Shown: one piece after another, positions 6,967 through 23,134 of the stretch | Layout: each line of letters opens with the position of its first letter | How positions within the stretch are numbered: the first letter of the stretch is position 1 | Source: Gemmatimonadota bacterium | GTDB taxonomy: Bacteria > Gemmatimonadota > Gemmatimonadetes > Palauibacterales > Palauibacteraceae | Assembly: GCA_039588275.1 (NCBI GenBank) | Contig: JBDHAC010000063.1 | Location: 1-23,409 of the forward strand | Direction of reading: 5' to 3' | Length of the DNA: 23,409 bases | Position numbers and translations under genes: made by a program | The notes under the pieces: generated by a model | Databases searched by the model: none | Seen by the model: only the letters and a program-made list of their open reading frames with translations | Told to the model about the DNA's origin: nothing

Positions 6967-7150
6967 GCCCCGGGTCCGACATCGCGCAGTAAACCGCAAT
7001 AATCGGTGGCGCCCTGCGGTGCTCGACGCGTTCGACAGCGAGCGTGCCGAGGACGTTTCACCTCCGTCCCCGCTGCCGGATGTACGCTGAATGCCGCGTC
7101 ATCGCAGCAGAATCCCCGAACGATCCATCTTGCCGGACACGGCGAAGTCG

Positions 7151-7166
7151 TGGCTCGGGATATGCT
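7151..7166 (+). promoter_or_regulatory. Candidate sigma54 -24/-12 promoter upstream of the GGDEF-EAL gene
   Basis: TGGCTCGGGATATGCT versus consensus TGGCACGNNNNTTGCW: two mismatches with exact GG-N10-GC spacing, in an intergenic position. Confidence 0.5.
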
Positions 7167-7247
7167 TTCTGGAGGTGCCTAGGCTCTGGACTGTCCGGCC
7201 GCGGACAGAGACGCGGCGCGAGACGGCAGACATCAGCGGGAGGCTGT

Positions 7248-9050
7248 TTGCCCTCGACATCAGTATGGCTCACAAGTCTCAGCGTCGCGTTTCCGGTGCT
7301 GGTCGTGCTCGCGTGGTTCCGCCGCCGGCTCGTGCTCGCCGGATATGAATCGTTGTTCGCCGAGCACACGGACGCTGTAGCGACCCTCGACCGTAAAGGA
7401 CGAATCCGGCGCATCAACCGTGCGTTCACGAGCCTCACGGGTCTGGACGAGTCTCGAGTGCGCCGGATCGCGTTCTCCGATGCCGTCCGGGAAGAGGATC
7501 GAGCACAGGCGATGTCCGCCTTGCGCGCTGCGCGTCGCGGTGAGCCCCGCACGGTCGAGGCAGGCCTGCGCGATGAAGAGGGCGAGCGAGTGGACGTGGA
7601 GCTCACCTCTGTCCCGATCGTGGTGTTGGGGCGGGTGGTGGGGACTCACCAGATCGCGCGCGACATACGCGACCGCAAAGAGGCGGACCGAAAGCTCCAC
7701 GCGAGAGCCCTGCACGATCCCCTGACCGGTTTGTCGAATCGCACGCTCTTCCAGGACCGGCTCCGCCACGCGTTGGACCGCGGCCGCCGAACCGGGCAGA
7801 TGGTTGGGCTTCTCTACATGGATCTGGACCATTTCAAGAACGTGAACGACACGGCCGGTCACGAAGCGGGGGATCTCCTGCTCAAGACTGTCGCGTCGCG
7901 GCTCGAGAGCGTCCTTCGGGAGGGAGACACGGTGGCGCGGCTGGGTGGGGACGAGTTCGCCATCCTGCTGGAAGACATGGAGGGCGAGGAGGAGGCGGTC
8001 GTTGCGGCCAGGCGCGTGGCCGATCTGTTGAGCAAGCCCGTGCGCCTCGAGAGCGGTGACTGGAATGCCGGCGGGAGCGTGGGCGTGGCGATCAGCTCCA
8101 CCCTCACCGAGTCACCCGAGGAGTTGGTACGGCGGGCGGATCTCGCCATGTACGAGGCGAAACGGAGGGGCGGATGCCGCTACCAGCCGTACACTCCGGC
8201 TCTCGACGACCAGCAGCGTGACGTGAACCTGCACCTGGAGAGCGATCTGCGCCACGCGATTCAGGAGAATGGGCTGAATGTCCACTATCAGGCGATCGTG
8301 GACCTCGCGGGAACCCGTATCGTGGGAGTCGAAGCGCTGGTCCGCTGGCAACACCAGAGACTCGGCTCCCTGACACCTTCGATCTTCCTCCCGATCGCCG
8401 AGCGCTCGAACCTGATCGGCGCCCTCGACCGATGGGTCCTGAGGCGCGCCTGCCGTGACGTCAAGACACTGCTCGAGGATTCGGCGTCGATCGCCCCCGA
8501 TTTCTTCCTCAGCGTGAACTGCTCGAAGCGTGGTCTCGCGGAAGCTGACTCGGCGGCGACGATCATCGACATCCTCGAGGCGGAGGCGTTCGACCCTCGG
8601 CGGCTCCAGGTAGAGCTCACGGAGAGTGTCGGAGGCGGGAGCCTGGAAACGCTGGAGCGACTGAGGGCGGCAGGAATCAAGCTAGCGATCGACGACTTCG
8701 GGACCGGCTACTCCTCGCTCGGCTATCTGGGGCGACTGCAGGTCGACGTGCTGAAGATCGATCGTTCCCTGATTCGCGCGCTCGGGGCTGACACCACCTC
8801 GGGCGCTATCGTCCGCACCATCCTCACGCTCGCTCAGGTTATCGGGCTCGGCGTGATCGTAGAAGGAGTCGAGAACGTTGGGCAGCTGAGGCAGCTCCAG
8901 GAGCTGGGCGGGCGATACGTGCAGGGCTTCTACTTCGGTCAGCCGACCGACTTCGAAACGATCGCCAACCTGATACGTCGCGGCCTGCCACCGGATTGGG
9001 CCTTCCGCGGTGCGAGCCCCTCCCGTCAGGTCGCCGCTACGTCGGGATAG
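7248..9050 (+). CDS. TM-PAS-GGDEF-EAL diguanylate cyclase/phosphodiesterase
   Basis: N-terminal hydrophobic helix and PAS/PAC (INRAF...ARDI). GGDEF domain has HDPLTGLSNR, DLDHFKNVND, I-site REGD five residues before GGDEF. EAL domain has EALVRW, SVN, ELTE, DDFGTGYSS, KID, EGVE, QG. Start placed at TTG 7248 after GGGAGG; the ORF-track start at 7044 looks over-extended. Confidence 0.93.
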   Translation: MPSTSVWLTSLSVAFPVLVVLAWFRRRLVLAGYESLFAEHTDAVATLDRKGRIRRINRAFTSLTGLDESRVRRIAFSDAVREEDRAQAMSALRAARRGEPRTVEAGLRDEEGERVDVELTSVPIVVLGRVVGTHQIARDIRDRKEADRKLHARALHDPLTGLSNRTLFQDRLRHALDRGRRTGQMVGLLYMDLDHFKNVNDTAGHEAGDLLLKTVASRLESVLREGDTVARLGGDEFAILLEDMEGEEEAVVAARRVADLLSKPVRLESGDWNAGGSVGVAISSTLTESPEELVRRADLAMYEAKRRGGCRYQPYTPALDDQQRDVNLHLESDLRHAIQENGLNVHYQAIVDLAGTRIVGVEALVRWQHQRLGSLTPSIFLPIAERSNLIGALDRWVLRRACRDVKTLLEDSASIAPDFFLSVNCSKRGLAEADSAATIIDILEAEAFDPRRLQVELTESVGGGSLETLERLRAAGIKLAIDDFGTGYSSLGYLGRLQVDVLKIDRSLIRALGADTTSGAIVRTILTLAQVIGLGVIVEGVENVGQLRQLQELGGRYVQGFYFGQPTDFETIANLIRRGLPPDWAFRGASPSRQVAATSG

Positions 9051-11944: not shown

Positions 11945-12051
11945 GAGCCGACCTCCTCGGGATTCGGGGTAGATCGGGGAAGCTAGGCGAGTCGGCGCGA
12001 GCGCTACAGGGCCGGCAGGTGAGAGTCATAGCGGGCGCTCACCCTCGTGAG

Positions 12052-12125
12052 TGCGCCCGGGAGGACTCGAACCCCCAGCCTTCGGATCCGAAGTCCGACG
12101 CTCTATCCAGTTGAGCTACGGGCGC
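12052..12125 (-). tRNA. tRNA-Arg (anticodon UCG), CCA not encoded
   Basis: Reverse complement is GCGCCCG TA GCTCAACTGGATAGAGC G TCGGA CTTCGGA TCCGA AGGCT GGGGG TTCGAGT CCTCC CGGGCGC A. It forms a full cloverleaf with the A20 Arg identity element, anticodon TCG and G37. Confidence 0.95.
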
Positions 12126-12201: not shown

Positions 12202-12346
12202 AAACCTTCCCGTTCCTGGGGCTCCGGCCTTCCGGGTTGCTAGAACCGGGAGCCAGTTTGACCCATCCCGCAGGTGAGAGACAGCCCGGGAGCGGTTTCT
12301 TCCTGGCTCAGCCGGGGCCGGCCTGGTCGACAGTGAGGGACGAGGC

Positions 12347-12847
12347 GTGGGCGTACGAAGACCGGCAGCAACGAGCTGCGCGCATTCGAGCGACGGGCGC
12401 CGTAAATCCAACGGGTTTACGGTGTTGGAGCTGGTCTCCGTCCTGGTGATCATCGCCATCGGGACGATGATGGCGCTCAAGGTATCCGAACGGGCCTCCG
12501 ACTCCGCACAAATCAAGCAGGCGATCGCGGAAATCCTCCAGCTTCAGACCCGCATCGACGAGTTCTCCATGACGTGGGACCGCCTACCCAACTCTCTCGG
12601 CGAGCTGGGTGGGGGCGTTCCGCAAGATCCGTGGGGAAACGCCTACGAGTACTTCCCGTTTCTGGATGGGGTAAATATGTCGATGGCCAGGAGAGATCGA
12701 TTCCTGGTCCCAATCAACACCCTGTATGACCTATGCAGCAGGGGGCGCGACGGCCTCACCACCAACAATCTCACATCGCCCGACGCCCAGGACGACGTCA
12801 TTCGAGCGAACGACGGCGCCTATATAGGGCTGGCCGTCGGTTACTGA
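12347..12847 (+). CDS. GspG-like prepilin-type (class III signal) pseudopilin
   Basis: Basic leader, then G|FTVLE plus hydrophobic helix. GspG-type LPNSLGEL...DPWGNAYEY and YDLCSRGRDG...DDV motifs. The GTG start is uncertain. Confidence 0.88.
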   Translation: MGVRRPAATSCAHSSDGRRKSNGFTVLELVSVLVIIAIGTMMALKVSERASDSAQIKQAIAEILQLQTRIDEFSMTWDRLPNSLGELGGGVPQDPWGNAYEYFPFLDGVNMSMARRDRFLVPINTLYDLCSRGRDGLTTNNLTSPDAQDDVIRANDGAYIGLAVGY

Positions 12848-12859
12848 TCTAGGCGAAAC

Positions 12860-14986
12860 GTGCGATTAGAGGGAACGTTCTTCCGATCTCGCCTCGGTCG
12901 CCGAATCCTGGGCCTGTTCGTCCTCTGCGCGCTCATCCCGACTGGCGCCGCGCTCACATTCATGTACGTACAGGCCGATCGGCGGCTGGCCGACGAGCGC
13001 AGGGAGCGCGTCCGGGAACAAAGCAAGCTGGGCGCGGAACAGGTGCTCCAGAGGATACGGATCATCGAGCGAGAGTTCGCCCGCACGATCCACCGAATCG
13101 AAACCACGGAACCGGAAGAGTGGACCACGGTCGCGGACTCGTCGACCGCTCAGTTAGTCGGACTCGCCGCAGAGGCCGGGTTGGGGGACATCGTGACGAT
13201 CTTCGGCGATCCACCGAGCCCTCCACCGCTGACCGAGCTGGTTCGCGAACGTCTCTCGGAGGGACGGAGCGCGTTGGCCACCGTCCCGGAGCCAAACGGA
13301 CGATCGCGAGTGATTCTCGTTCACCAGGCACAGCTCGAGGACGGTCCGATCCTCATGTGGGGAGAGCTGGACAGGGAGCGGCTCGCCGCCGAGACAGCCT
13401 CGTTCTCGGCAGCCATCGATCTGTGCATGGTGGATCACCGGAAGGTCCCGATCTTCTGTGACATCGATGTACCGAAGGACCTCCTGCCCAACGTCGGTGA
13501 TCAACGTAGCACCGCCCAGGATGCCTACCTCGAATGGCAGGACGGCGAGATCACGCGGATAGGCGCATACGCGCTGGTCTTCGTGTCATACGACTACGCG
13601 GCGCCTCCCTGGATGATCATGGCGGGGGAACGCACGAGGTCCGTGCTCTCGGAGCTGTCCGAGTTCCGGATCACGCTCGTGCTCGCGGGGGCCATGGGGC
13701 TGGTACTCGTCGTCCTCCTTGGGAGTGTCCAGATCAGGCGTAGCCTTGAGCCGTTGCACCGGCTCAAGGAAGGCACCAACCGCGTGGCGGAGGGGAACTT
13801 CGCGGCCCGAGTCGAGATCACCTCGGGGGACGAATTCACCGATTTGGCCGACTCGTTCAACGAGATGACGCGACAGCTGGATCAGCAGTTCGAGACCTTG
13901 CGCACGCTGCGGGCCATCGACCAGGCGGTGCTGGAAACCCCGAGCTTCGACGAGATCGCGTCGGCGTCGCTCTCGCAGGCGACACAGCTCACGGCGTGCG
14001 ATATCGCTTGCCTCATCGTCAAGGAGGATCCGGAGAGATCGGACGGTGCTCTGGGCTTCGTCTACCTCGCAGGGGAAGAGCCTCGCAGGATCGACGATCT
14101 CGAGCTCGGGAAGCACGATGACGAGATCTTGCAGAGTCAAGGGCTGGCTCTGGTGACCTCTGACGCGTCGCTGCCTTGCCTCGGCATTGACCCTATCGCC
14201 GGTCGCTCGGAGGAGTTCCTCGTCGTCGGGATCCGGGAGCACGGCAATCTCCACGGCGTGCTCGCCCTCGGCTTCCCACCCGAGTCGGGCCAGTGGGAGA
14301 ACGTCGTTAGCGAGGCTCTGCAACTCGCGGATCAGCTCGCCGTCGCGCTCGCCAATGTGCGTCTCGTGGGCACCCTGGACGATCTGAGTGGTGGGGCCCT
14401 GCAGGCGCTGGCACGGACGGTGGACGCCAAGTCTGCCTGGACGGCGGGTCACTCCGAGCGTGTCACCCGTCTCGCCCAGGCACTCGCTTCCGAGCTGGGG
14501 TTGTCTGCCGCGGACCAGGACCGCCTCTACCGCGGCGGTCTGCTGCACGACATCGGGAAGCTGGGAGTGAGCGAGGAGACCTTGGACTGGCCAGGGAAGC
14601 TCAGCGATGAGCAGTGGGAGGAGATCAGGCGACACCCCGGCATCGGGGTCGAGATCCTGGAGCCGATCCCGGTGTTCCACGACATCCTCCCCATCGTCCA
14701 CTACCACCACGAGCGGTGGGACGGGGCGGGTTATCCGGCGGGGCTCGCCGGGGAGGCCATCCCGTTACTGGCCCGCGTGGTCGCCGTGGCGGACGTGTAC
14801 GACGCGCTCACCTCCGATCGACCCTACCGCGCCGGGATGCCCCGGGAAAAGGCCATTCAGATCATCGAAGAGGGATCGGGCACGCAGTTCGATGCCGCGA
14901 TCGTGCCGGTACTGCGCCGAGCTCTGGGAAGACTGGAAGAGGCAAGACAGGAAGAGCCGGTGCAACTGATTGCCGTCGGCGAGTGA
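12860..14986 (+). CDS. Membrane HD-GYP phosphodiesterase 1 (TM - extracytoplasmic sensor - TM - HAMP - GAF - HD-GYP)
   Basis: Two TM helices flank a ~235-aa region. HAMP (PLHRL...GDEF.DLA.SFN.M), GAF-like segment ending LADQLAVALANVRL, and HD-GYP motifs GHSERV, LHDIGK, HHERWDGAGYP, ADVYDAL, RPYR, QFD. Confidence 0.93.
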   Translation: MRLEGTFFRSRLGRRILGLFVLCALIPTGAALTFMYVQADRRLADERRERVREQSKLGAEQVLQRIRIIEREFARTIHRIETTEPEEWTTVADSSTAQLVGLAAEAGLGDIVTIFGDPPSPPPLTELVRERLSEGRSALATVPEPNGRSRVILVHQAQLEDGPILMWGELDRERLAAETASFSAAIDLCMVDHRKVPIFCDIDVPKDLLPNVGDQRSTAQDAYLEWQDGEITRIGAYALVFVSYDYAAPPWMIMAGERTRSVLSELSEFRITLVLAGAMGLVLVVLLGSVQIRRSLEPLHRLKEGTNRVAEGNFAARVEITSGDEFTDLADSFNEMTRQLDQQFETLRTLRAIDQAVLETPSFDEIASASLSQATQLTACDIACLIVKEDPERSDGALGFVYLAGEEPRRIDDLELGKHDDEILQSQGLALVTSDASLPCLGIDPIAGRSEEFLVVGIREHGNLHGVLALGFPPESGQWENVVSEALQLADQLAVALANVRLVGTLDDLSGGALQALARTVDAKSAWTAGHSERVTRLAQALASELGLSAADQDRLYRGGLLHDIGKLGVSEETLDWPGKLSDEQWEEIRRHPGIGVEILEPIPVFHDILPIVHYHHERWDGAGYPAGLAGEAIPLLARVVAVADVYDALTSDRPYRAGMPREKAIQIIEEGSGTQFDAAIVPVLRRALGRLEEARQEEPVQLIAVGE

Positions 14987-14996
14987 GGATACGGAG

Positions 14997-15458
14997 ATGA
15001 GTACGAAGCGACGATCCAAGCGGAACCACGAGGGGGCGCGAGCGACGCAGCGATCTACGAAACGGACGCCAGCGACCCGGGCCGCGATGGTGGTTTGCGC
15101 AGCGCTCTTCGCGCTGGCGGCGGTGCTCCTCCTGAGAGGGTCTCGATCGGAGGAGCTTCCCCCCGAGCTGCTCGGTCATTGGACGACCACCAACTCGCGG
15201 TACGAGGGACGCGCGTTCACGCTCACCGAGGCGACCCTGGAGATCCATACCAGCCCCTCCAGTTCGACGGTGCATCAGGTTCACAAAGTGGAGAGGGACG
15301 AGAGCGAAGGCCTGGTTTATACGATCCGCTACGAGGACGGTGGCACCCTTGTGCCGTTCGCGATCGCATACGGGGCCCGCGCGCCGAGTGGGGCACCTCA
15401 GTGGGTCCATTTTCCGCGTCAGCCAGAGATCGAATGGCGGAAGACGATCGAGCGATGA
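14997..15458 (+). CDS. Hypothetical single-pass membrane protein with small beta-rich exported domain
   Basis: ATG follows GGAG, 10 bp after the HD-GYP stop. Basic N-terminus, one TM helix, then LPPELLGHW and alternating beta-strand patterns. Confidence 0.65.
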   Translation: MSTKRRSKRNHEGARATQRSTKRTPATRAAMVVCAALFALAAVLLLRGSRSEELPPELLGHWTTTNSRYEGRAFTLTEATLEIHTSPSSSTVHQVHKVERDESEGLVYTIRYEDGGTLVPFAIAYGARAPSGAPQWVHFPRQPEIEWRKTIER

Positions 15459-15731
15459 CCGAACGGACGTGCGGCGGCTTTGCAGAGCGCTAGAAGGTCT
15501 TGCAATTGCCCCCGCAGAAAGTGGCGAGCGCGAGCCACGAACTTTCTTTACTGTCCACTTTGCGGTCATGTAACGCGCTATGTGACATGGGCTTACGTCG
15601 TGGACGCCCCTAGGTGTGCCATGAGCCCTAGGCGTGCTCCAGATACGCGCGCGTCGGTGGGAGGTGGAGTCTCCCACTGTCGAGACCGCCTCGGGGGCGG
15701 AGTCGATCGGATGCGCCAGAGAGTTGCGACG

Positions 15732-16232
15732 ATGTCGTACGAGACACGGACAGGGACGGGCGGATTCACGCTCCACGAGCTGATCATCGCCATCGCGCTA
15801 GTCGTGGCGGCGATGGCCATCGTCGGCCCACCGACCGTGAGAACCATGCATCGATCGACGCTTCGAGCCGCCGCGAACGAAGTCCAATCGATGCACGCCA
15901 CCGCGCGCAGCCTCGCGATGCAGTCGGGACGGCCGGCGGTGTTGGAGTTCCTGCCGGCCCAGGGTCAGTTGCCGAACACCATCTCTTTGCAGGCGGACAC
16001 CTCCGCCAGCGGGTTGACGGAGATCCGGCGCTCTGCCCTCACGCGTGCGGACTTCGTTTCGGACCGCACGATCTTGTGCTTCGATGCGCGCGGACTTCCG
16101 ACGACCAAGACGATCCGGGAGCCAAACGGGAAGATCAAACAGTGCGAAGCGGCCGACGCCACGATCATCGTGCGCACCGGAGCGCTGGCGGACACGCTTC
16201 GCTACTCACCGCTCGGGGAGCTCATCCCATGA
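15732..16232 (+). CDS. FimT/GspH-like minor pilin
   Basis: G|FTLHE plus hydrophobic helix. AANEV..ARSLAM..GR and FDARG motifs are typical of FimT/GspH. Alternative ATG at 15711. Confidence 0.85.
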   Translation: MSYETRTGTGGFTLHELIIAIALVVAAMAIVGPPTVRTMHRSTLRAAANEVQSMHATARSLAMQSGRPAVLEFLPAQGQLPNTISLQADTSASGLTEIRRSALTRADFVSDRTILCFDARGLPTTKTIREPNGKIKQCEAADATIIVRTGALADTLRYSPLGELIP

Positions 16233-16612
16233 AGCGACCTACGCCTCGTTCCCGACCCAAGGTGGGTGATCAGCGAGGAGCCTCGGCGCTCGAGGTCATG
16301 CTCGCGATCGTTCTCCTGTCTACCGCGATCCTGGGTGCGGCGGCGGCACAGGCCGGAAGCTGGCGCGTCCTGGCCGGCGGCCGCCGGGACGTCGGGGCGT
16401 GGGCGGCACTGCACTATCAGGTGGAAGAGCTGATTTCGGGAGGATACGACCGGGCGGTGTCAGGCTCACGGGTCTTGAACGGCTACCCGATCCAATGGGA
16501 TGTCGCCGGGACCGACCCCAAGGTGGTGATGATCGTCGCGCGCTACCCGAACGGCTGGACGATGGGGGCCGACACGGTGCGCGTCGTGCTCAGGCCCCCT
16601 CCGGCCCCATGA
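16229..16612 (+). CDS. PilV-like minor pilin
   Basis: ATGA overlap with the previous gene. QRG|ASALEVMLAIVLL class III signal (Glu5 present, Ala at +1). Short, second in the cluster. Confidence 0.75.
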   Translation: MKRPTPRSRPKVGDQRGASALEVMLAIVLLSTAILGAAAAQAGSWRVLAGGRRDVGAWAALHYQVEELISGGYDRAVSGSRVLNGYPIQWDVAGTDPKVVMIVARYPNGWTMGADTVRVVLRPPPAP

Positions 16613-16628
16613 TGGCGGCCTGAGCTCC

Positions 16629-17471
16629 ATGTCTCACACCGGGGGCGGCATGAGGGGAGCCCAAGCTGGGCGCTCGGCGGGATTCACCCTGTTCGAGGCG
16701 CTCGTGTATCTGGTCTTCGGCGGCATGGTAGTCGCCGCCATCCACTCGGTCGTGTTCAAGAGTCAGCGCGACTTCCACGAACAGCGGGCGCTCGCCGAGG
16801 GGCAGGGCGTGCTGCGAAACGCGATGACGCTGCTCGTCGGCGAGCTCCGATCGCTGTCCGCCACCGGGGGCGACATTCTGCAGACCGACCCGAGCCTCAT
16901 CCGGATGCGCGCGACCCGGGGGGAGAGCGTCATCTGCGGCACCGTCGCGAACCAGACCGACCCGACATATGAAATGGCGCTCGTAGGAGGCACGCATGCG
17001 GCCGAGCCGGCCGATAGCGCGCTGCTCCTCGCGATCAACGGTGCCGGCCGGGACGACGACGCGTGGCAGGTCGTGAAGGTCACGCAGGTGAGCGTGGCCG
17101 GAAACGACGACAACTGCGACTGGGCAGGCGCCGCCGATCCGGAGCTGATCGTGAGCGTGAGAGGTGACACCGCCGGGGTGAAGATCGGCTCGCTGGTTCG
17201 TCCGTTTCGGCAGATCGAGTACGGGTTGTTGGAGTGGAACGGGGAGTGGTGGCTCGGCCGCCGCCTGCGCGGGCAGGCGTGGGAGCCGATGACCGGACCG
17301 TTGCTCGCGCCGGCTGATTCGGGACTCCTGTTTACCTACCTGGCCGAGGACGGCAGCGTCACCGCAACCGCGGCGGATGTCGCCGCGGTCGACATTCTCC
17401 TGAGAGCACGTCGACCCGGCGAGACCGCCCGCGTCGACTCGCTCCGCACCAAGGTTGCGGTGAGGGGGTGA
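16629..17471 (+). CDS. PilW-like minor pilin
   Basis: AG|FTLFEALVYLVFGG signal, LR.AM.LL..ELR helix, one Cys pair, and C-terminal LLFTY...G...VAAVDILL motif. Alternative ATG at 16650. Confidence 0.8.
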   Translation: MSHTGGGMRGAQAGRSAGFTLFEALVYLVFGGMVVAAIHSVVFKSQRDFHEQRALAEGQGVLRNAMTLLVGELRSLSATGGDILQTDPSLIRMRATRGESVICGTVANQTDPTYEMALVGGTHAAEPADSALLLAINGAGRDDDAWQVVKVTQVSVAGNDDNCDWAGAADPELIVSVRGDTAGVKIGSLVRPFRQIEYGLLEWNGEWWLGRRLRGQAWEPMTGPLLAPADSGLLFTYLAEDGSVTATAADVAAVDILLRARRPGETARVDSLRTKVAVRG

Positions 17472-18769
17472 GGATCATGACCGAGCGCCCGGACGTGCAA
17501 CCCCCGCTGAAGCGTCGAAACCATTGGCCGAACGAAGGCGGCTACGTGCTCATCTGGGCCTTGTTCGCGTTCGTCCTGTTGGGCGGGCTCGCCGCGGCCG
17601 CGCTCAAATCGACGGGCTCGGAGCGCCGGCTGGCCAAGGCTTCCTCGGATTGGAACGTCAGCTTCTACGCCGCCGAGGTCGGACTCCAGCAGACGTTCGG
17701 GATCGCGACCGACACGCTGGTCGGGGCTCTCCAGCCCGGTGACTCGATCGATCTGGGGTGGCAGCCGATCGATGGGTCGACGGACTATCGCGCCGTCGTC
17801 TACCGAATCGACAACGGCCCACACATGCTCTATCAGATCCGGAGCACGGGGCGCTACGACAGGCTGTTCGCGGGCCAGACCACGATCACCCAGACCATGA
17901 CCCTGGCGTCGGACAAGCCGGACGGGATCCTGATCGACGACCCGCTCCGCATTGACGGGGCCGCGACCGTGTCCGGCGAATGTCGCATCCACGCACGGAA
18001 TCAGCTGACCGTGCCCGGCCTCCTGTCGACCGATGGCCCGGTGAGCTCGGAGGGACTGGTCGACGGGAACATCGTCCACCCGGACGGCTTACCTCCCGAA
18101 TCCTACGCCGACCCCATCCCTCCAGAGCCCCTGGAGCTCGACGCCTACTGTGCCGCGGCCGACTACCGGATCTCGGACGGGTGGCTGGTGACGACCGCCA
18201 CCGGTGACAGCGCGCAGCTCGGCGCCGCGGGGGCCGCTAACTGGAGCGCGATCGTCAACGACGAAGGGTACCCCGAATACGTGTTTGACGCGGACGAGGG
18301 CACCTGGAATCCGATGGACCCCAACGTGAAGATGAGTGGCAGCTTTTGCGCGGACGAAAGCGTCACGCTGATCGGGAGCCCTGGCCAGCCGGCGAGCCCA
18401 GCTTCCATTTCGCTGTTCACGAGGGGCTTCGTCGAGGTGATCGGTAGTCCATTTGTGGAGGCGGCGCACGGAGACGGGACCCTGTTCGCCACCTACGGGG
18501 ACATCGTGCTCGACGGAGCGATGGACGCCTTCACGCCGAACTACAGAGGCCACGTGCGCGCGCGTAGCGAATGTAATGCCAACAACGCACTGTGGATCGA
18601 CGGATCGATCGCTTGCGGCGGGACGACCTACCAGGATCCGCCCGGGGTGCGAACGATCGCGATCGATAACATCATCGTCGGCGACCTGAAGCTCACCACC
18701 ACCTGTAACATCAACAGTATCGTCGCACCTCGTCCGATCACGCTCCGCTCCTGGCGACACGACTTCTGA
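17468..18769 (+). CDS. PilX-like minor pilin with extended C-terminal beta-rich domain
   Basis: GTGA overlap. EGG|YVLIWAL signal lacks Glu5, as in PilX/GspK. SFYAAEVGL and YQIRSTGR motifs, ending LRSWRHDF. Confidence 0.82.
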   Translation: MRIMTERPDVQPPLKRRNHWPNEGGYVLIWALFAFVLLGGLAAAALKSTGSERRLAKASSDWNVSFYAAEVGLQQTFGIATDTLVGALQPGDSIDLGWQPIDGSTDYRAVVYRIDNGPHMLYQIRSTGRYDRLFAGQTTITQTMTLASDKPDGILIDDPLRIDGAATVSGECRIHARNQLTVPGLLSTDGPVSSEGLVDGNIVHPDGLPPESYADPIPPEPLELDAYCAAADYRISDGWLVTTATGDSAQLGAAGAANWSAIVNDEGYPEYVFDADEGTWNPMDPNVKMSGSFCADESVTLIGSPGQPASPASISLFTRGFVEVIGSPFVEAAHGDGTLFATYGDIVLDGAMDAFTPNYRGHVRARSECNANNALWIDGSIACGGTTYQDPPGVRTIAIDNIIVGDLKLTTTCNINSIVAPRPITLRSWRHDF

Positions 18770-18957: not shown

Positions 18958-21213
18958 ATGCTGCGGATATCGACAAATCGGGGCGGCCGAACAGCGGGGG
19001 AAAGACGAGCGCGCTCGCGCGTGGCGCGTCGCATGGTTCTCCTGTTTATCGCCTGCGCCCTCGTACCGGTCTCCGCCCTCGCGCTGTTCGCCTACCGTCA
19101 GGTATCCCGACAGCTGGAGGCGCAGGGCCGGGCCAGTCTGCGCGAGGCCGGAAAGCTCGCGGGGATGCCCCTGCTGGAACGGCTGGACTTCCTGAACGAC
19201 AAGCTCCGGGCGATGTCACCGGCATCCACTGGCGATCCGATGAGAACGTTTGCTGTGGAACCCGAGCCCGCCGACTCGCCCGACACTTCGCGAGAACACT
19301 TCCTCTCGGTCGTTCTCCGGGTGCAGGGCGAAAGGGTTTCGACCCTCGCCGGCGACGATCATGTCCTCGATCCGAGCGCGACCTTGACGGTCGTGGCCGA
19401 TGCCCACTTGGCGACCGGGCGCTCGCTGCTGCATGTCCTCCGGGACGGCACCGGCCCCAGGGTCTTCCTGATCCAACGACTCGATCCCACGGATCCCGCG
19501 CGCGGCGAGCTGTGGGCAGAGCTCGAGCCGGAGTACCTGTTCACTGGAGGGTTGGGAAAGGACGGCGTCCCCACGGGCATGGAGCTCTGCCTTCTCGACG
19601 GTGAGGCACACCCGCTCTACTGCCCGAATCCGCCCGGCAGGAAGCAGCTGGACGCGCTGGCCGAGGCGATCGCCTCCCGCTCCGTCGATGCGGTCGGGTG
19701 GGAGGGGGTCAAGGGCGAGTACCTGGCCGGGTTCTGGACCGCGTTCCTCGGCTACTCCTACGGATCGGATGACTGGACGGTGATGTTGAGCGAGCCGCGG
19801 AGCCTCGCGCTCGCACCCGTGGCCGAATTCCGTCAGGTCTTCCTGCTCATCGCGATTCTCGTCGTCGTACTGGCCTTCCTGTTCAGCAATATCCAGATCC
19901 GGCACAACCTGGAACCGCTCGATAGGCTCAAGGCGGGCACCGAGCGAATCGCTCGTCGGGACTTCGGAACACCCGTCGAGGTTCGTAGCGGCGACGAGTT
20001 CGAGATCCTCGCGGGAGCGATCAACGCGATGGGGCGAAGCCTGGCCTCTCAGTTCGCCGCCATGGCCGCCCTGGGCGAGATCGATCGCGCCGTCCTGTCG
20101 GCCCTCCGCACCGAAGCGGTCATCGAGATCGTGCTGGCGCGCGCGAGCGATGTCACGGCGTGCGACGCCGTCGCGGTCGGCATCATCGGGGATGAGAGCG
20201 AGCTCTGCCTGTCGGGATCGGGCACCCATCAGCTGACGTCGGCCGTCGTCGTGCACCGCCCGGATGACACCGAGCTGTCGCCGCTTCGACGAGGAGACGT
20301 GCTTCGCTTCGGACCGGACCTCGAGTGCCCTGCGTATCTGAGCCGCGCGCTGGCGATCGAGGGTCCTCACGCACAGGTGCTGGTATTCCCACTGCGGACT
20401 AGCGAAGCCCTGCTGGGGCTCCTCGCTCTCGGGTACCTTGGCGAAGCGCCCGAAGACGACGATGCGCTGAACCGCGACCGCAAGCTCGCGGATCAGATCA
20501 CGGTGGCGCTGGAAAACGCGGCGCTGGTCGAGCGTCTGGATCGACTGACCGTCGGGACGCTCGACGCGTTAGCTCGCACCGTCGACTCCAAGTCTCCGTG
20601 GACGGCGGGTCATTCGAAACGCGTGGCAGAACTGGCCGTCCGGCTCGGACAGGTCGTCGAACTGCCCGAGCCCCACCTCGAGGTGCTCTACCGAGGCGCT
20701 CTGCTCCACGACATCGGTAAGATCGGCGTTCCGGCCGCCATACTGAACAAACCGGCGCGGCTCACCGACGACGAGATGGAGAGGATCCGCGAGCATCCGG
20801 AGATCGGTTTCCGCATTCTCTCCCCGATCGAGAGCCTCGCGGACATCCTCCCGATCGTCCGAAACCATCACGAGCGATACGCCGGCGGCGGATACCCGGA
20901 TGGCACACCCGCGCGCGAGCTGTCGGACCTGGTACGGCTCGTCACCGTCGTGGATACGTACGACACACTCGTGAACGACCGACCCTACAGAGACGGCCTG
21001 GAGCCCGAGGGTGCACTCCAACTGCTCGTAGAGGGGAGCGGGTCGCAGTTCGATCCGGAGTTCGTGGCCGCGCTCGTGACCCTCGTCCGAGATCACGGCG
21101 ATGGGCAGGGTGCGTGCGCCGCCGGAGCGAGTCCGGAGACGGCGAGCGCGCAGGCTGAAGTCGCCGAAGGCACGTCGGTTGAGACGTCGCCCCTGAAGGA
21201 TGCCGTCGCCTGA
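18958..21213 (+). CDS. Membrane HD-GYP phosphodiesterase 2 (paralog; TM - sensor - TM - HAMP - GAF - HD-GYP)
   Basis: Same architecture as 12860-14986 (RSRVARRMVLLFIACALVP, EPLDRLKAGT, SGDEF, IDRAVL), with GHSKRV, LHDIGK, HHERYAGGGYP, DTYD, RPYR. Start placed at ATG 18958 by alignment to the paralog. Confidence 0.92.
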   Translation: MLRISTNRGGRTAGERRARSRVARRMVLLFIACALVPVSALALFAYRQVSRQLEAQGRASLREAGKLAGMPLLERLDFLNDKLRAMSPASTGDPMRTFAVEPEPADSPDTSREHFLSVVLRVQGERVSTLAGDDHVLDPSATLTVVADAHLATGRSLLHVLRDGTGPRVFLIQRLDPTDPARGELWAELEPEYLFTGGLGKDGVPTGMELCLLDGEAHPLYCPNPPGRKQLDALAEAIASRSVDAVGWEGVKGEYLAGFWTAFLGYSYGSDDWTVMLSEPRSLALAPVAEFRQVFLLIAILVVVLAFLFSNIQIRHNLEPLDRLKAGTERIARRDFGTPVEVRSGDEFEILAGAINAMGRSLASQFAAMAALGEIDRAVLSALRTEAVIEIVLARASDVTACDAVAVGIIGDESELCLSGSGTHQLTSAVVVHRPDDTELSPLRRGDVLRFGPDLECPAYLSRALAIEGPHAQVLVFPLRTSEALLGLLALGYLGEAPEDDDALNRDRKLADQITVALENAALVERLDRLTVGTLDALARTVDSKSPWTAGHSKRVAELAVRLGQVVELPEPHLEVLYRGALLHDIGKIGVPAAILNKPARLTDDEMERIREHPEIGFRILSPIESLADILPIVRNHHERYAGGGYPDGTPARELSDLVRLVTVVDTYDTLVNDRPYRDGLEPEGALQLLVEGSGSQFDPEFVAALVTLVRDHGDGQGACAAGASPETASAQAEVAEGTSVETSPLKDAVA

Positions 21214-21409
21214 TCAGCCCTCATCGGGTTTCGTCCCTCCATAACCTCCCCTACGCCGAAACCTCACCGCCCGACCCCTCGTCATGATGCCAGCCGCGAG
21301 CCTCGGCCCCGGTGGCGACACGAGAGAGAGTGCATTGGCGGATGAACGCTGCCTCTGGGTGCGAGGTCCGCTCGCGGCGATCTACCGAGATTCCTTATGG
21401 GAGACGTCT

Positions 21410-23134
21410 ATGAAGCCGAGCGCGTTGAAACAGATCGCCCACCTTGGACGCGCGGCGTTGATCGCCGCCCTCGTCTTGGCCGGGATTCCCGTCAGCGCTC
21501 TCGGTCAAACCCTGAACGCTGAGGCTTACCTGGAGGTGAAGGAGCGAGCCGAGGCCGCCTATCGCGAAGGCCGCTACGGTGAGGCGGCCGAGGCGTTCCG
21601 TACGCTCCTCGATCACAACCCGGGCGATGGAGACCTGTGGATTCGGCTCGGACGTGCACACGAGCGCGCTGAAGAACGGCAGCAAGCGATCGAGGCTTTC
21701 CAACGCGCACGGGCCCTCGGCTACGCGACGGGCTACACGATCGATGTCTGGATCGCCGCATTGTACGCGGATATGGATGACCAGGAGGGCGCCTACGAGT
21801 GGTTGGAGCGCGCGCTCGCCGACGGGCTCGAGGGCCGCAATCGGATCAGCCAGCACCGCGCCTTCAAGCGCTACGAGGACGACGACCGGTACCGTCGCCT
21901 CGCGGGTCTTCTGCCGCAGCGCGAGTTCACGCGGGACGAGGGATGGCGGTACGACCTCGATTACCTCGTCGAGGAGATCCGCCGCCTGCACGCCGCCTTC
22001 GAGCGTCCCGCGTTCTCACCCGAGTTCGAAACGGCGATGGCCGACATCCATGAGCGCATCCCGCGCTTGACCGATGATCAGATCGCGAACGAGCTCAAGC
22101 GGCTGGTTGTGAGGCTGGGGGATGGCCACAGCGCCATCTGGTCCGTGCCAACGGACGATGTGAGCTTCGCGGGGCTGCCGATCGACGTGTATCTGTTCAG
22201 CGATGGACCTTTCATCGTCGGAGCCGGGGGCGCGGACGCCCAGGAGCTGATCGGGAGTCGCCTGCTTCAGGTCGGCGGCCGCCCAGTCGAGGAGCTGATC
22301 CCCGGCGTCGAGCCCTACCTCGCGGTCGACAACCCGATGGGCGTGCGCTCGGGGACGGCCGCTCTGATCACGCGGCTCGATCTGCTCGAGGCGTTGGGGG
22401 CGACGCGCGAGGGGGATGCCATGTCCGTGACCGTGGCCGGCCCCACCGATGGTACCCGGACCGCGACGCTCACAGCCGGACCGCCACGTCGTACGTGGCG
22501 CTTGATGGGACCGCCGGCCGACGCTTCTGCCCCCACACCGCTCTACCTCAGCAACCCGACCAAGAACATCTGGCTGGAGGAGCTCCCCGACCACCAGGCG
22601 CTTTACGTCCAGTACAACTCGGTCTCGAACGAGCGCGGGAACACGGTCGCCGACTTCGCCGACACTTTGCTCGCGGCGGCTGAGCGCACCGGGTCGTCCA
22701 CCGTGATTGTCGACGTCCGCCGCAACGGCGGCGGCAACAACTTCCTCAACTGGCCGCTGGTTCGGGCACTGATCCGGTTCGAGCACGAGGAGCCGGACCG
22801 CCGGATCTTCGTGCTCGCCGGGCGCCATACGTTCTCGGCGGCGCAGAACTTCGTGAACTGGGTCGAGCGGCTGACCGACGCCGTCTTCGTGGGCGAGCCG
22901 ACGGGCTCGCGCCCCAACTTCACCGGGGAGACCACCCCGGTGACGCTTCCGTACAGCGGTCTCCAGGGGAGCATCTCGTCGCGCTACTGGCAGGATTCGC
23001 ACGCGAACGACGACCGCATATGGATCGCGCCCGACATCCCGGTCGGGCTCTCGTCGGAGGACTACTTCTCCAACCGAGATCCCGTCCTCGAGGCGGTCCT
23101 GCGCTTGATAGAAAGCGGGCGAACCATCTCCTGA
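21410..23134 (+). CDS. Secreted TPR-domain + S41 (tail-specific protease)-like peptidase
   Basis: GGGAG precedes ATG 21410. Signal peptide, then TPR-like helices (Y.EAAEAF...NP.D...W..LG.A). LGDGH, degenerate PDZ-like segment, VDVRRNGGG, TFSAA (candidate catalytic Ser) and VGEPTG. Confidence 0.85.
   Translation: MKPSALKQIAHLGRAALIAALVLAGIPVSALGQTLNAEAYLEVKERAEAAYREGRYGEAAEAFRTLLDHNPGDGDLWIRLGRAHERAEERQQAIEAFQRARALGYATGYTIDVWIAALYADMDDQEGAYEWLERALADGLEGRNRISQHRAFKRYEDDDRYRRLAGLLPQREFTRDEGWRYDLDYLVEEIRRLHAAFERPAFSPEFETAMADIHERIPRLTDDQIANELKRLVVRLGDGHSAIWSVPTDDVSFAGLPIDVYLFSDGPFIVGAGGADAQELIGSRLLQVGGRPVEELIPGVEPYLAVDNPMGVRSGTAALITRLDLLEALGATREGDAMSVTVAGPTDGTRTATLTAGPPRRTWRLMGPPADASAPTPLYLSNPTKNIWLEELPDHQALYVQYNSVSNERGNTVADFADTLLAAAERTGSSTVIVDVRRNGGGNNFLNWPLVRALIRFEHEEPDRRIFVLAGRHTFSAAQNFVNWVERLTDAVFVGEPTGSRPNFTGETTPVTLPYSGLQGSISSRYWQDSHANDDRIWIAPDIPVGLSSEDYFSNRDPVLEAVLRLIESGRTIS

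Follow-up and report, generated by a model that had tools for sequence, protein, structure and literature searches.

A GspG-like pilin gene that recurs beside the genes of one membrane-sensor family

What does a pilin-like protein do when its gene adjoins that of a membrane receptor? Pilins are fibre subunits, and in a few model organisms the pool of pilin in the membrane feeds back on a sensor. The question is raised by positions 12347–14986 of a 23,409-nucleotide stretch of DNA from a Gemmatimonadota bacterium (JBDHAC010000063.1, hereafter the window), which is an entire 23.4-kb contig (C63) of a metagenome-assembled genome, 85.8% complete. Here, on the forward strand, a gene for a GspG-like prepilin (12347–12847; 166 amino acids (aa), GTG start, TGA stop at 12845–12847) is followed after 12 nucleotides (nt) by the gene for a membrane sensor with an HD-GYP domain (sensor 1, or HD-GYP1; 12860–14986, 708 aa, GTG start at 12860). 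A third gene on the same strand, orf162, extends over 14970–15458 from a TTG, overlapping the end of the sensor 1 gene, or over 14997–15458 from an ATG. A previous reading of the window from its letters (the sequence-only reading) had listed a G|FTVLE processing site, a DPWG motif, an insert and a tail in the pilin-like protein and had named HD-GYP1 as the next gene, 12 bp downstream; when the open reading frame (ORF) was read directly, all of these were where they had been placed. It had further proposed that the protein is a pseudopilin repurposed as a dedicated partner or ligand of the extracytoplasmic domain of the sensor.

Pilin and sensor genes across genomes

Relatives of the pilin gene were found in 555 genomic stretches among species-representative genomes; 80 of these were fetched and underlie all locus counts given here, with flanks of up to 10 kb inspected around the pilin gene at each locus. 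A match to the profile of the sensor domain adjoined the pilin gene in 75 of the 80 loci, directly downstream on the same strand in 74 and divergently in one, and was absent at the other five (L004, L013, L020, L039 and L055). The gap between the two genes is tight in most loci, as it is in the window. Genes for pilus or secretion machinery were present at four loci only, in agreement with the expectation of the sequence-only reading that the homologues lie outside gsp operons.

While the periplasmic domain is shared, the domains behind it are not. Pfam searches of 77 ORFs downstream of the pilin gene returned HD_5 (HD-GYP) in 48, HisKA together with HATPase_c in 12 (several with a receiver domain), GGDEF together with EAL in four and Guanylate_cyc in two; two more ORFs had HAMP only (split or cut), one was a second pilin, and eight had no domain, five of them being cut by the contig end. 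A quick pilin tree requires no fewer than 10 switches of output type, and at least two switches are forced by its well-supported branches. The input side stays constant while the outputs are exchanged, and the sequence-only reading had raised just this prospect of one sensor domain with different outputs.

The third gene participates less regularly. With G for the pilin gene, S for the sensor gene and O for orf162, the gene orders in the 80 loci are GSO (32), GS (24), OGS (11) and GO (4), the remaining loci having less frequent arrangements, and an iterated profile detects orf162 homologues on the same strand in 54 loci. The pilin, sensor and orf162 genes form a gene module that is conserved across phyla. 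Some loci have two G-like pilin genes, either in tandem, as in L013 (2230–3540), or flanking the sensor gene in the order G-S-G-O; L034, L076 and L091 are further loci with two such genes.

Within the Gemmatimonadota we sampled 301 genomes, including the source genome. The pilin was found in 40 of them, the periplasmic sensor domain in 51 and both in 28, and comparison of coordinates placed the two genes next to each other in all 28. The distribution is patchy: in the window's own family, the module is present in one of the 23 other genomes. The source genome has one member of the pilin family and two sensors, all inside the window. The nearest public relative of the contig is a Gemmatimonadota bin (L001), with 90% identity in the tblastn match and 92% in the pilin alignment.

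Defined by insert and tail, the pilin family comprises at least 780 representatives at 50% identity (E ≤ 1e-30), compared with 137,220 generic pilin matches at E ≤ 1e-3; a word-indexed search yielded 60 clusters at 90% identity. The groups named by the 80 loci include Gemmatimonadota, Acidobacteriota, Desulfobacterota/Deltaproteobacteria, Methylomirabilota/Rokubacteria, Nitrospirota, Gammaproteobacteria, Krumholzibacteria, Latescibacterota, Myxococcota and others. One carrier is a cultured, non-pathogenic isolate, Thiorhodococcus drewsii AZ1 (L058), which has the pilin with the GGDEF-EAL form of the sensor.

Pilin-like protein, sensors and orf162

The pilin-like protein begins with a predicted leader of 23 aa that ends in glycine and is followed by F-T-x-x-E and a hydrophobic helix (RRKSNG|FTVLELVSVLVIIAIG). 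Cleavage is predicted after G23 (nt 12413–12415), between G23 and F24 of RRKSNG|FTVLE, leaving a mature protein of 143 aa in which E28 becomes E5; the ORF has no alternative in-frame start upstream of the cleavage site. The protein passes the Pfam N_methyl model (23.6 bits, cut-off 21.2) and TIGR02532 (18.7 versus 16.3 bits), matches Pfam T2SSG marginally (25.2 bits versus 21, with no single stretch passing alone) and fails the GspG equivalog TIGR01710 (32.3 bits, cut-off 88.85). Its AlphaFold2 model (pLDDT 88.8) has as its closest solved folds EpsG (4lw9; Z 8.6, root-mean-square deviation 2.8, 91 residues aligned) and PulG (5wda; Z 7.7). Foldseek comparison of the model with EpsG, GspG and PulG gave TM-scores of 0.60–0.64 (probability 1.0, E about 1e-2), and the family profile matches PulG at E 7e-12. 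Considering that the fold is GspG-like, but that both the equivalog score and the operon context fail, we assign the protein to a separate GspG-like subfamily.

Relative to PulG, an insertion of about 17 residues, ending RRDRFLVPINT, lies between DPWGxxYxY and the xDLYSxGxDG segment, and the C-terminus (DDVIRANDGxFIGLAxxY), which ends the protein, is longer. In the window, DPWG occupies residues 94–97, ARRDRFLVPINTLYDL residues 113–128 and DDVIRANDGAYIGLA residues 149–163; the family insert is RRDRFLVPINT and the tail DDVIRANDG. Alignment of 59 genomic homologues over 144 columns showed 15 columns to be invariant and another 15 nearly so, and the motifs are invariant or nearly invariant in a separate alignment of 27 homologues too, indicating that they did not arise by chance. 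The length of the mature protein is nearly constant, at 143–146 residues in most of the 80 loci.

Two variations within the family deserve mention. Pro22 of helix α1, a residue important for pilin assembly, is replaced by K, S or R in the window's pilin and in the four homologues nearest to it, and is proline in the 22 other aligned sequences; the clade that lacks it is the one that carries the H-K-like genes described below. In six family representatives of 347–375 aa (P0083, P0091, P0095, P0114, P0145 and P0191) the pilin module is the C-terminal part of one continuous ORF, the N-terminal ~200 aa of which contain two hydrophobic segments and a HAMP-like stretch (Pfam HAMP, 16.9 bits, in one of the six). 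A putative fusion of a cytoplasmic signalling segment ahead of the prepilin leader would suit the expected topology and offers a hint of a role in signalling.

Sensor 1 comprises a first transmembrane segment (TM1, residues 16–37), a periplasmic dCache-like domain (~38–270), a second transmembrane segment (TM2, 271–290), HAMP, GAF and HD-GYP. Pfam scores are 53.8 bits for HAMP, 20.0 for GAF_2 (below cut-off) and 128.2 for HD_5 (cut-off 27.2). Sensor 2 (HD-GYP2; 18958–21213, forward strand, 751 aa from the ATG at 18958 in an ORF that opens at TTG 18844) shares with it the periplasmic domain, HAMP (39.2 bits) and HD-GYP (HD_5, 120.7 bits). Both sensors retain intact HD and GYP motifs (HDIGK and HHERWDGAGYP in sensor 1, HDIGK and HHERYAGGGYP in sensor 2) and are predicted to be phosphodiesterases of cyclic di-GMP (c-di-GMP). 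Sensor 2 is nearer to the family consensus (profile score 363 bits), and in tblastn searches its N-terminal 330 aa matched 72 of the 80 loci, whereas the sensor 1 periplasmic domain matched 30.

The AlphaFold2 model of sensor 1 residues 1–335 (pLDDT 89.5) consists of TM1, a long stalk helix, two PAS-like modules, TM2 and HAMP, and Foldseek matched it to the dCache ligand-binding domains of Tlp3, PctA, Mlp24 and TlpA (E 1e-7 to 1e-5) at 10–15% identity. Pfam Cache models gave no match at E ≤ 0.01 in either sensor, nor any in the 77 downstream ORFs at the thresholds applied to those. The periplasmic domain is thus, as judged by its modelled fold, a divergent dCache that is invisible to Pfam. Across 59 homologues it has no invariant residue, a pattern easier to reconcile with a protein partner or a variety of ligands than with a single small ligand common to all. 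TM1 of the sensors has an invariant mid-helix proline (P27) and a nearly invariant arginine (R15) at its cytoplasmic edge. A charge pair operates in PilA–PilS; that E5 of the pilin, which would lie at the same membrane face as R15, might form a similar pair is conceivable but pure speculation. A related periplasmic domain is found in ~1000-aa proteins of Gemmatimonadota genomes lacking the pilin (G024, G036, G062, G123, G130, G150, G180, G196, G203, G207 and others), and many of these match only positions 53–239 of the profile.

The orf162 product is a single-pass membrane protein with a periplasmic domain of ~115 aa. It matches no Pfam or NCBIfam family above cut-off, and its Atlas neighbours are unnamed hypothetical proteins; an assignment to Trp_oprn_chp (17.6 bits versus 29.6) and an Atlas lead to lipocalin/DUF5640 (score 0.80) were both discarded as too weak. 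Loci at which orf162 is missing even though the flanks are long mostly have a kinase or GGDEF-EAL output. The homologue in L055 (10438–11298) is a tandem duplication, with two membrane segments and the conserved domain after each. In the sensor-less pilin–orf162 pairs L082, L085 and L092, orf162 has an extended N-terminal region of ~100 aa, presumably cytoplasmic, with an S/GxADGNL motif common to them.

Neighbouring genes and possible roles of the module

The sequence-only reading had called the pilin gene an orphan without an adjacent gene of a type II secretion system (T2SS). The word orphan is wrong for this window, where H-K-like genes and the second HD-GYP sensor follow downstream; as to adjacent T2SS genes, the H-K-like set (15732–18769) contradicts the statement, whereas it holds for the machinery, because no ATPase, platform protein, secretin or prepilin peptidase gene is present on the 23.4-kb contig. 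The four genes, all on the forward strand, have the order and sizes of minor pseudopilins: H-like (15732–16232; 166 aa, GFTLHE), I-like (16229–16612; 127 aa, ASALE), whose start overlaps the H stop by 4 nt, J-like (16629–17471; 280 aa, GFTLFE) and K-like (17468–18769; 433 aa), whose start overlaps the J stop by 4 nt. The H-, I- and J-like proteins have a prepilin-type N-terminus. The H-like protein matches GspH weakly (E 0.0086) and TIGR02596 at E 5e-6, both below cut-off, and the other three match no Pfam or NCBIfam family. The I-like assignment is based on N-terminal motif, size and gene order, and the K-like assignment on position and size only, its N-terminal hydrophobic segment GGYVLIWALFAFVLL having no Glu at the position of pilin E5. 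Sequence searches of solved structures returned a single match for the J-like protein (BamC, E 0.37) and none at E ≤ 1 for the K-like protein. Further prepilin-motif genes near the pilin gene were found in 8 of the 80 loci, and the H-K set is common to L001, L003 and L004. Because all eight loci are labelled Gemmatimonadota, the H-K set is a lineage-specific addition.

Machinery is encoded elsewhere in the source genome, namely a type IVa pilus set including PilB, PilT and PilC (C27), a Tad-like set (C4), a secretin (C41) and Peptidase_A24 (prepilin peptidase) genes on C50 and C4. Among other carrier genomes, all five that were checked have Peptidase_A24 and all five have T2SSE-type ATPases. 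The presence of Peptidase_A24 in the source genome and in these five makes processing of the prepilin feasible. A six-frame search of the source genome for T2SSG gave no match, but it missed the window's own gene too at the genome-wide E-value.

The other features of the window are a tRNA-Arg gene on the reverse strand (12051–12125), which precedes the pilin gene, and, ~3 kb upstream on the forward strand, a PAS-GGDEF-EAL gene (7044–9050; GGDEF 158.9 bits, EAL 223.2 bits), with which the 23-kb contig has three genes for c-di-GMP turnover. The interval from orf162 to the H-like gene contains a terminator-like hairpin on the forward strand (15521–15538); it matches the consensus only weakly and does not count as evidence of function. 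For 12300–15500 no RNA data set was listed, and the one data set listed is a DNA run of a marine sediment metagenome. Scanning found no promoter-like site, and one terminator-like site compared with a mean of 3.2 in shuffles, a scan that is uninformative for a high-GC organism. Directly after sensor 2, a TPR/peptidase S41 gene (tail-specific protease-like; 21284–23134, forward strand) recurs by tblastn in one of the 80 loci.

How, then, might the module work? We consider it an even bet that the pilin-like protein is a membrane-anchored periplasmic partner, either co-receptor or ligand, of the dCache domain of the sensor. The prepilin would be cleaved by the prepilin peptidase of the cell; the mature form would then remain tethered to the inner membrane and expose its head to the periplasm. 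There the head may dock on, or be read by, the dCache domain and/or orf162, with the conserved insert and tail as the contact region; HAMP and GAF would relay the resulting state to the HD-GYP domain, and c-di-GMP would be hydrolysed at a rate governed by the pilin–dCache state. Signalling from a pilin through a sensor to c-di-GMP has a precedent in Caulobacter PilA and PleC/PleD (PMC7196804). The H-I-J-K-like genes and sensor 2 are an add-on of the window's lineage, with which the pilin could also polymerise. A broader proposal, which we put forward tentatively at slightly under even, is that evolution has turned the pilin fold into a receptor subunit with no part in secretion. In this proposal, the G-like protein, orf162 and the cryptic dCache would constitute a portable three-part periplasmic input device, plugged onto HD-GYP, histidine-kinase, GGDEF-EAL and nucleotide-cyclase outputs under at least 10 phylum-level labels, with the invariant insert and tail as the signal-perceiving or docking surface.

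A mirror-tree comparison of pilin and sensor domain gave r = 0.49, a value reached in none of 999 Mantel permutations; for pilin and sensor HAMP r was 0.30, and the partial correlation given HAMP was 0.41. The co-evolution that the sequence-only reading had anticipated between the two proteins may be reflected in this signal, which agrees with it, but the measure is crude.

Several observations weigh against a partner role. Shared ancestry confounds the mirror-tree signal, and a conserved pilin head (mean pairwise identity 0.515) facing a fast-evolving dCache domain (0.248) is unlike what would be expected of a large co-evolving interface. The hallmarks of a polymerising pilin are kept, with E5 in 59 of 59 homologues, the –1 glycine in most of these and Pro22 across most of the family, and the H-K-like genes of the window would allow the pilin a role in a fibre here. 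Many loci come from metagenome bins, whose short contigs could carry an incorrect phylum label. Nor is either gene always accompanied by the other. No sensor match was obtained in 12 of the 40 Gemmatimonadota genomes with the pilin; 11 of these have a bare pilin–orf162 pair, and the twelfth (L091) has pilin–orf162–pilin with a divergent sensor adjoining. The pilin–orf162 pairs of L055 and L039 sit between housekeeping genes. Conversely, a related sensor domain is present and the pilin absent in 23 of the 301 genomes, where most of the proteins with this domain have ~1000 aa. The idea of a dedicated sensor partner has passed its genomic tests, but the partnership is not exclusive, considering that orf162 is present at 54 of the 80 loci, that 11 genomes have pilin and orf162 only and that 23 of 301 have the sensor without the pilin.

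The main rival explanation, possible but unlikely in our estimate, keeps the contact between pilin and sensor but makes the protein a true polymerising pseudopilin, primed here by H-I-J-K, assembled by the type IVa motor and cycling between a fibre and a membrane pool. The sensor would read the unassembled pool in the inner membrane, as PilS and PleC read PilA, and would turn extension or retraction of the fibre into a change in c-di-GMP. Besides the invariant E5, the glycine at –1 in most members and the hydrophobic α1 helix, it draws on the order G...H-I-J-K in the window, which is that of gsp, with translational overlaps at H/I and J/K, and on the same H-K set in L001, L003 and L004. The source genome encodes PilB, PilT, PilC, a secretin and prepilin peptidase, and the five other carriers encode ATPases and peptidase; it is in the window's own lineage, with its H-K-like genes, that this explanation is most plausible. 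The absence of Pro22 from the window's clade counts against it, given the importance of this residue for assembly. Extra prepilin-motif genes accompany the pilin gene at only 8 of 80 loci, all labelled Gemmatimonadota, so that in other phyla the module is on its own; only four loci have machinery genes close by, and the pilin head is unusually conserved, at a mean of 51.5% identity across phyla. Caulobacter PilA–PleC (PMC7196804) provides a precedent for such sensing; however, PilS and PleC sense the transmembrane helix of the pilin, whereas the family-specific features here are in the periplasmic head.

Co-expression without contact, which we regard as improbable, would make the pilin, with orf162, the output or cargo of the system, for example an adhesive or periplasmic structure, whose production or use the neighbouring signalling protein would control, while the dCache domain senses an unrelated small molecule. 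Chemoreceptor dCache domains do bind small ligands, as the titles of the matched structure entries state, and related sensors occur without the pilin in the 23 genomes mentioned above. The 11 sensor-less genomes keep both pilin and orf162, so this pair can function without the sensor. However, an HD-GYP protein, a hybrid kinase, a GGDEF-EAL protein and a nucleotide cyclase would hardly all be regulators of one small protein, and the part that remains constant is the input. The dCache domain, having no invariant residue, gives no sign of a common small ligand, and the tight gaps and the 28 of 28 adjacency point to a stoichiometric partnership. An ordinary, diverged GspG, with the other T2SS genes on other or unassembled contigs and the HD-GYP neighbour a coincidence, would account for the GspG-like fold and the DPWG motif in a genome bin that is only 85.8% complete. 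This explanation is so improbable that we reject it, as it is contradicted by the synteny counts: the same sensor family adjoins the pilin gene in 75 of 80 loci and machinery in four. The TIGR01710 score (32.3 versus 88.85 bits) also disagrees with it, as do three complete chromosomes (L024, L073 and L078) with no detected ATPase within the locus fetched around the pilin gene.

The observations describe a distinct, strongly conserved pilin family that gene order ties firmly to a single family of membrane sensors with c-di-GMP, phosphorelay and cyclic-nucleotide outputs. If the pilin-like protein is indeed a receptor subunit, the module would represent a widespread, unstudied bacterial way of sensing the envelope or the surroundings, would give a function to many proteins annotated as general secretion pathway protein G far from secretion systems, and would offer a compact, testable system.

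Relation to known systems

With GspG, PulG and EpsG (PF08334, TIGR01710) the window's family has in common the G|FTxxE leader, the long α1 helix, DPWG and the xDLxSxGxDG...DD segment, which forms the calcium loop in PulG and EpsG. It differs from them in the ~17-residue insertion (..RRDRFLVPINT) and the longer tail (RANDGxFIGLAxxY), and, whereas GspG is encoded in an operon with GspE, GspF and GspD, its members are not encoded with GspC-F, L or M but in 75 of 80 loci with a sensor gene instead. Among HD-GYP enzymes such as RpfG, the sensors of the window are typical in their output domains (HD_5, 128 and 121 bits), but their input is a dCache-like domain, with a pilin-like protein as neighbour, and not a receiver domain.

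The periplasmic part of the sensors is like the dCache domains of the chemoreceptors PctA, Tlp3, Mlp24 and TlpA in having a stalk helix and two PAS-like modules between the transmembrane segments, with a target-normalised TM-score of up to 0.64. It differs in its 10–15% identity, in the lack of a Pfam Cache match and in being followed, in sensor 1, by HAMP-GAF and enzymatic outputs. Co-receptors of the LuxP–LuxQ type likewise combine an extracytoplasmic partner, encoded beside the sensor, with tandem PAS/Cache-like modules in the sensor itself. In the LuxP–LuxQ arrangement, as generally understood, the partner has the fold of a solute-binding protein, whereas here it has a pilin fold with a membrane anchor and is usually joined by orf162, so that the likeness is one of principle only. 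In sensors that depend on accessory proteins (reviewed in PMC8050422), the partner supplies or modulates the signal.

In full-text searches that took in few subscription journals, no account of a pseudopilin together with an HD-GYP or Cache sensor came up; the pairing is real and recurrent and, as far as we have searched, undescribed. The nearest parallels are systems in which a pilin-type protein serves as the input of a membrane sensor, namely Pseudomonas aeruginosa PilA–PilS, for which the precedent was reportedly set by Kilmury and Burrows in 2016, Caulobacter PilA–PleC/PleD, and minor pilins with FimS. In Caulobacter, PilA signals to PleC/PleD through its transmembrane helix, with c-di-GMP as the output (PMC7196804), and pilin-type input to a membrane sensor is also a subject of other literature on pilin-pool sensing (PMC5979040, PMC6058289). 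The pilins of PilA–PilS and PilA–PleC are subunits of a known pilus; here the protein comes from a GspG-like family of its own, in which the conserved features lie in the head. Unlike the PilA genes, the pilin gene lies beside sensors of one periplasmic family with four types of output, and no pilus genes are nearby in most phyla. In principle, the pilin–sensor module resembles both pilin-pool sensing and sensing through accessory proteins, and it is a member of neither.

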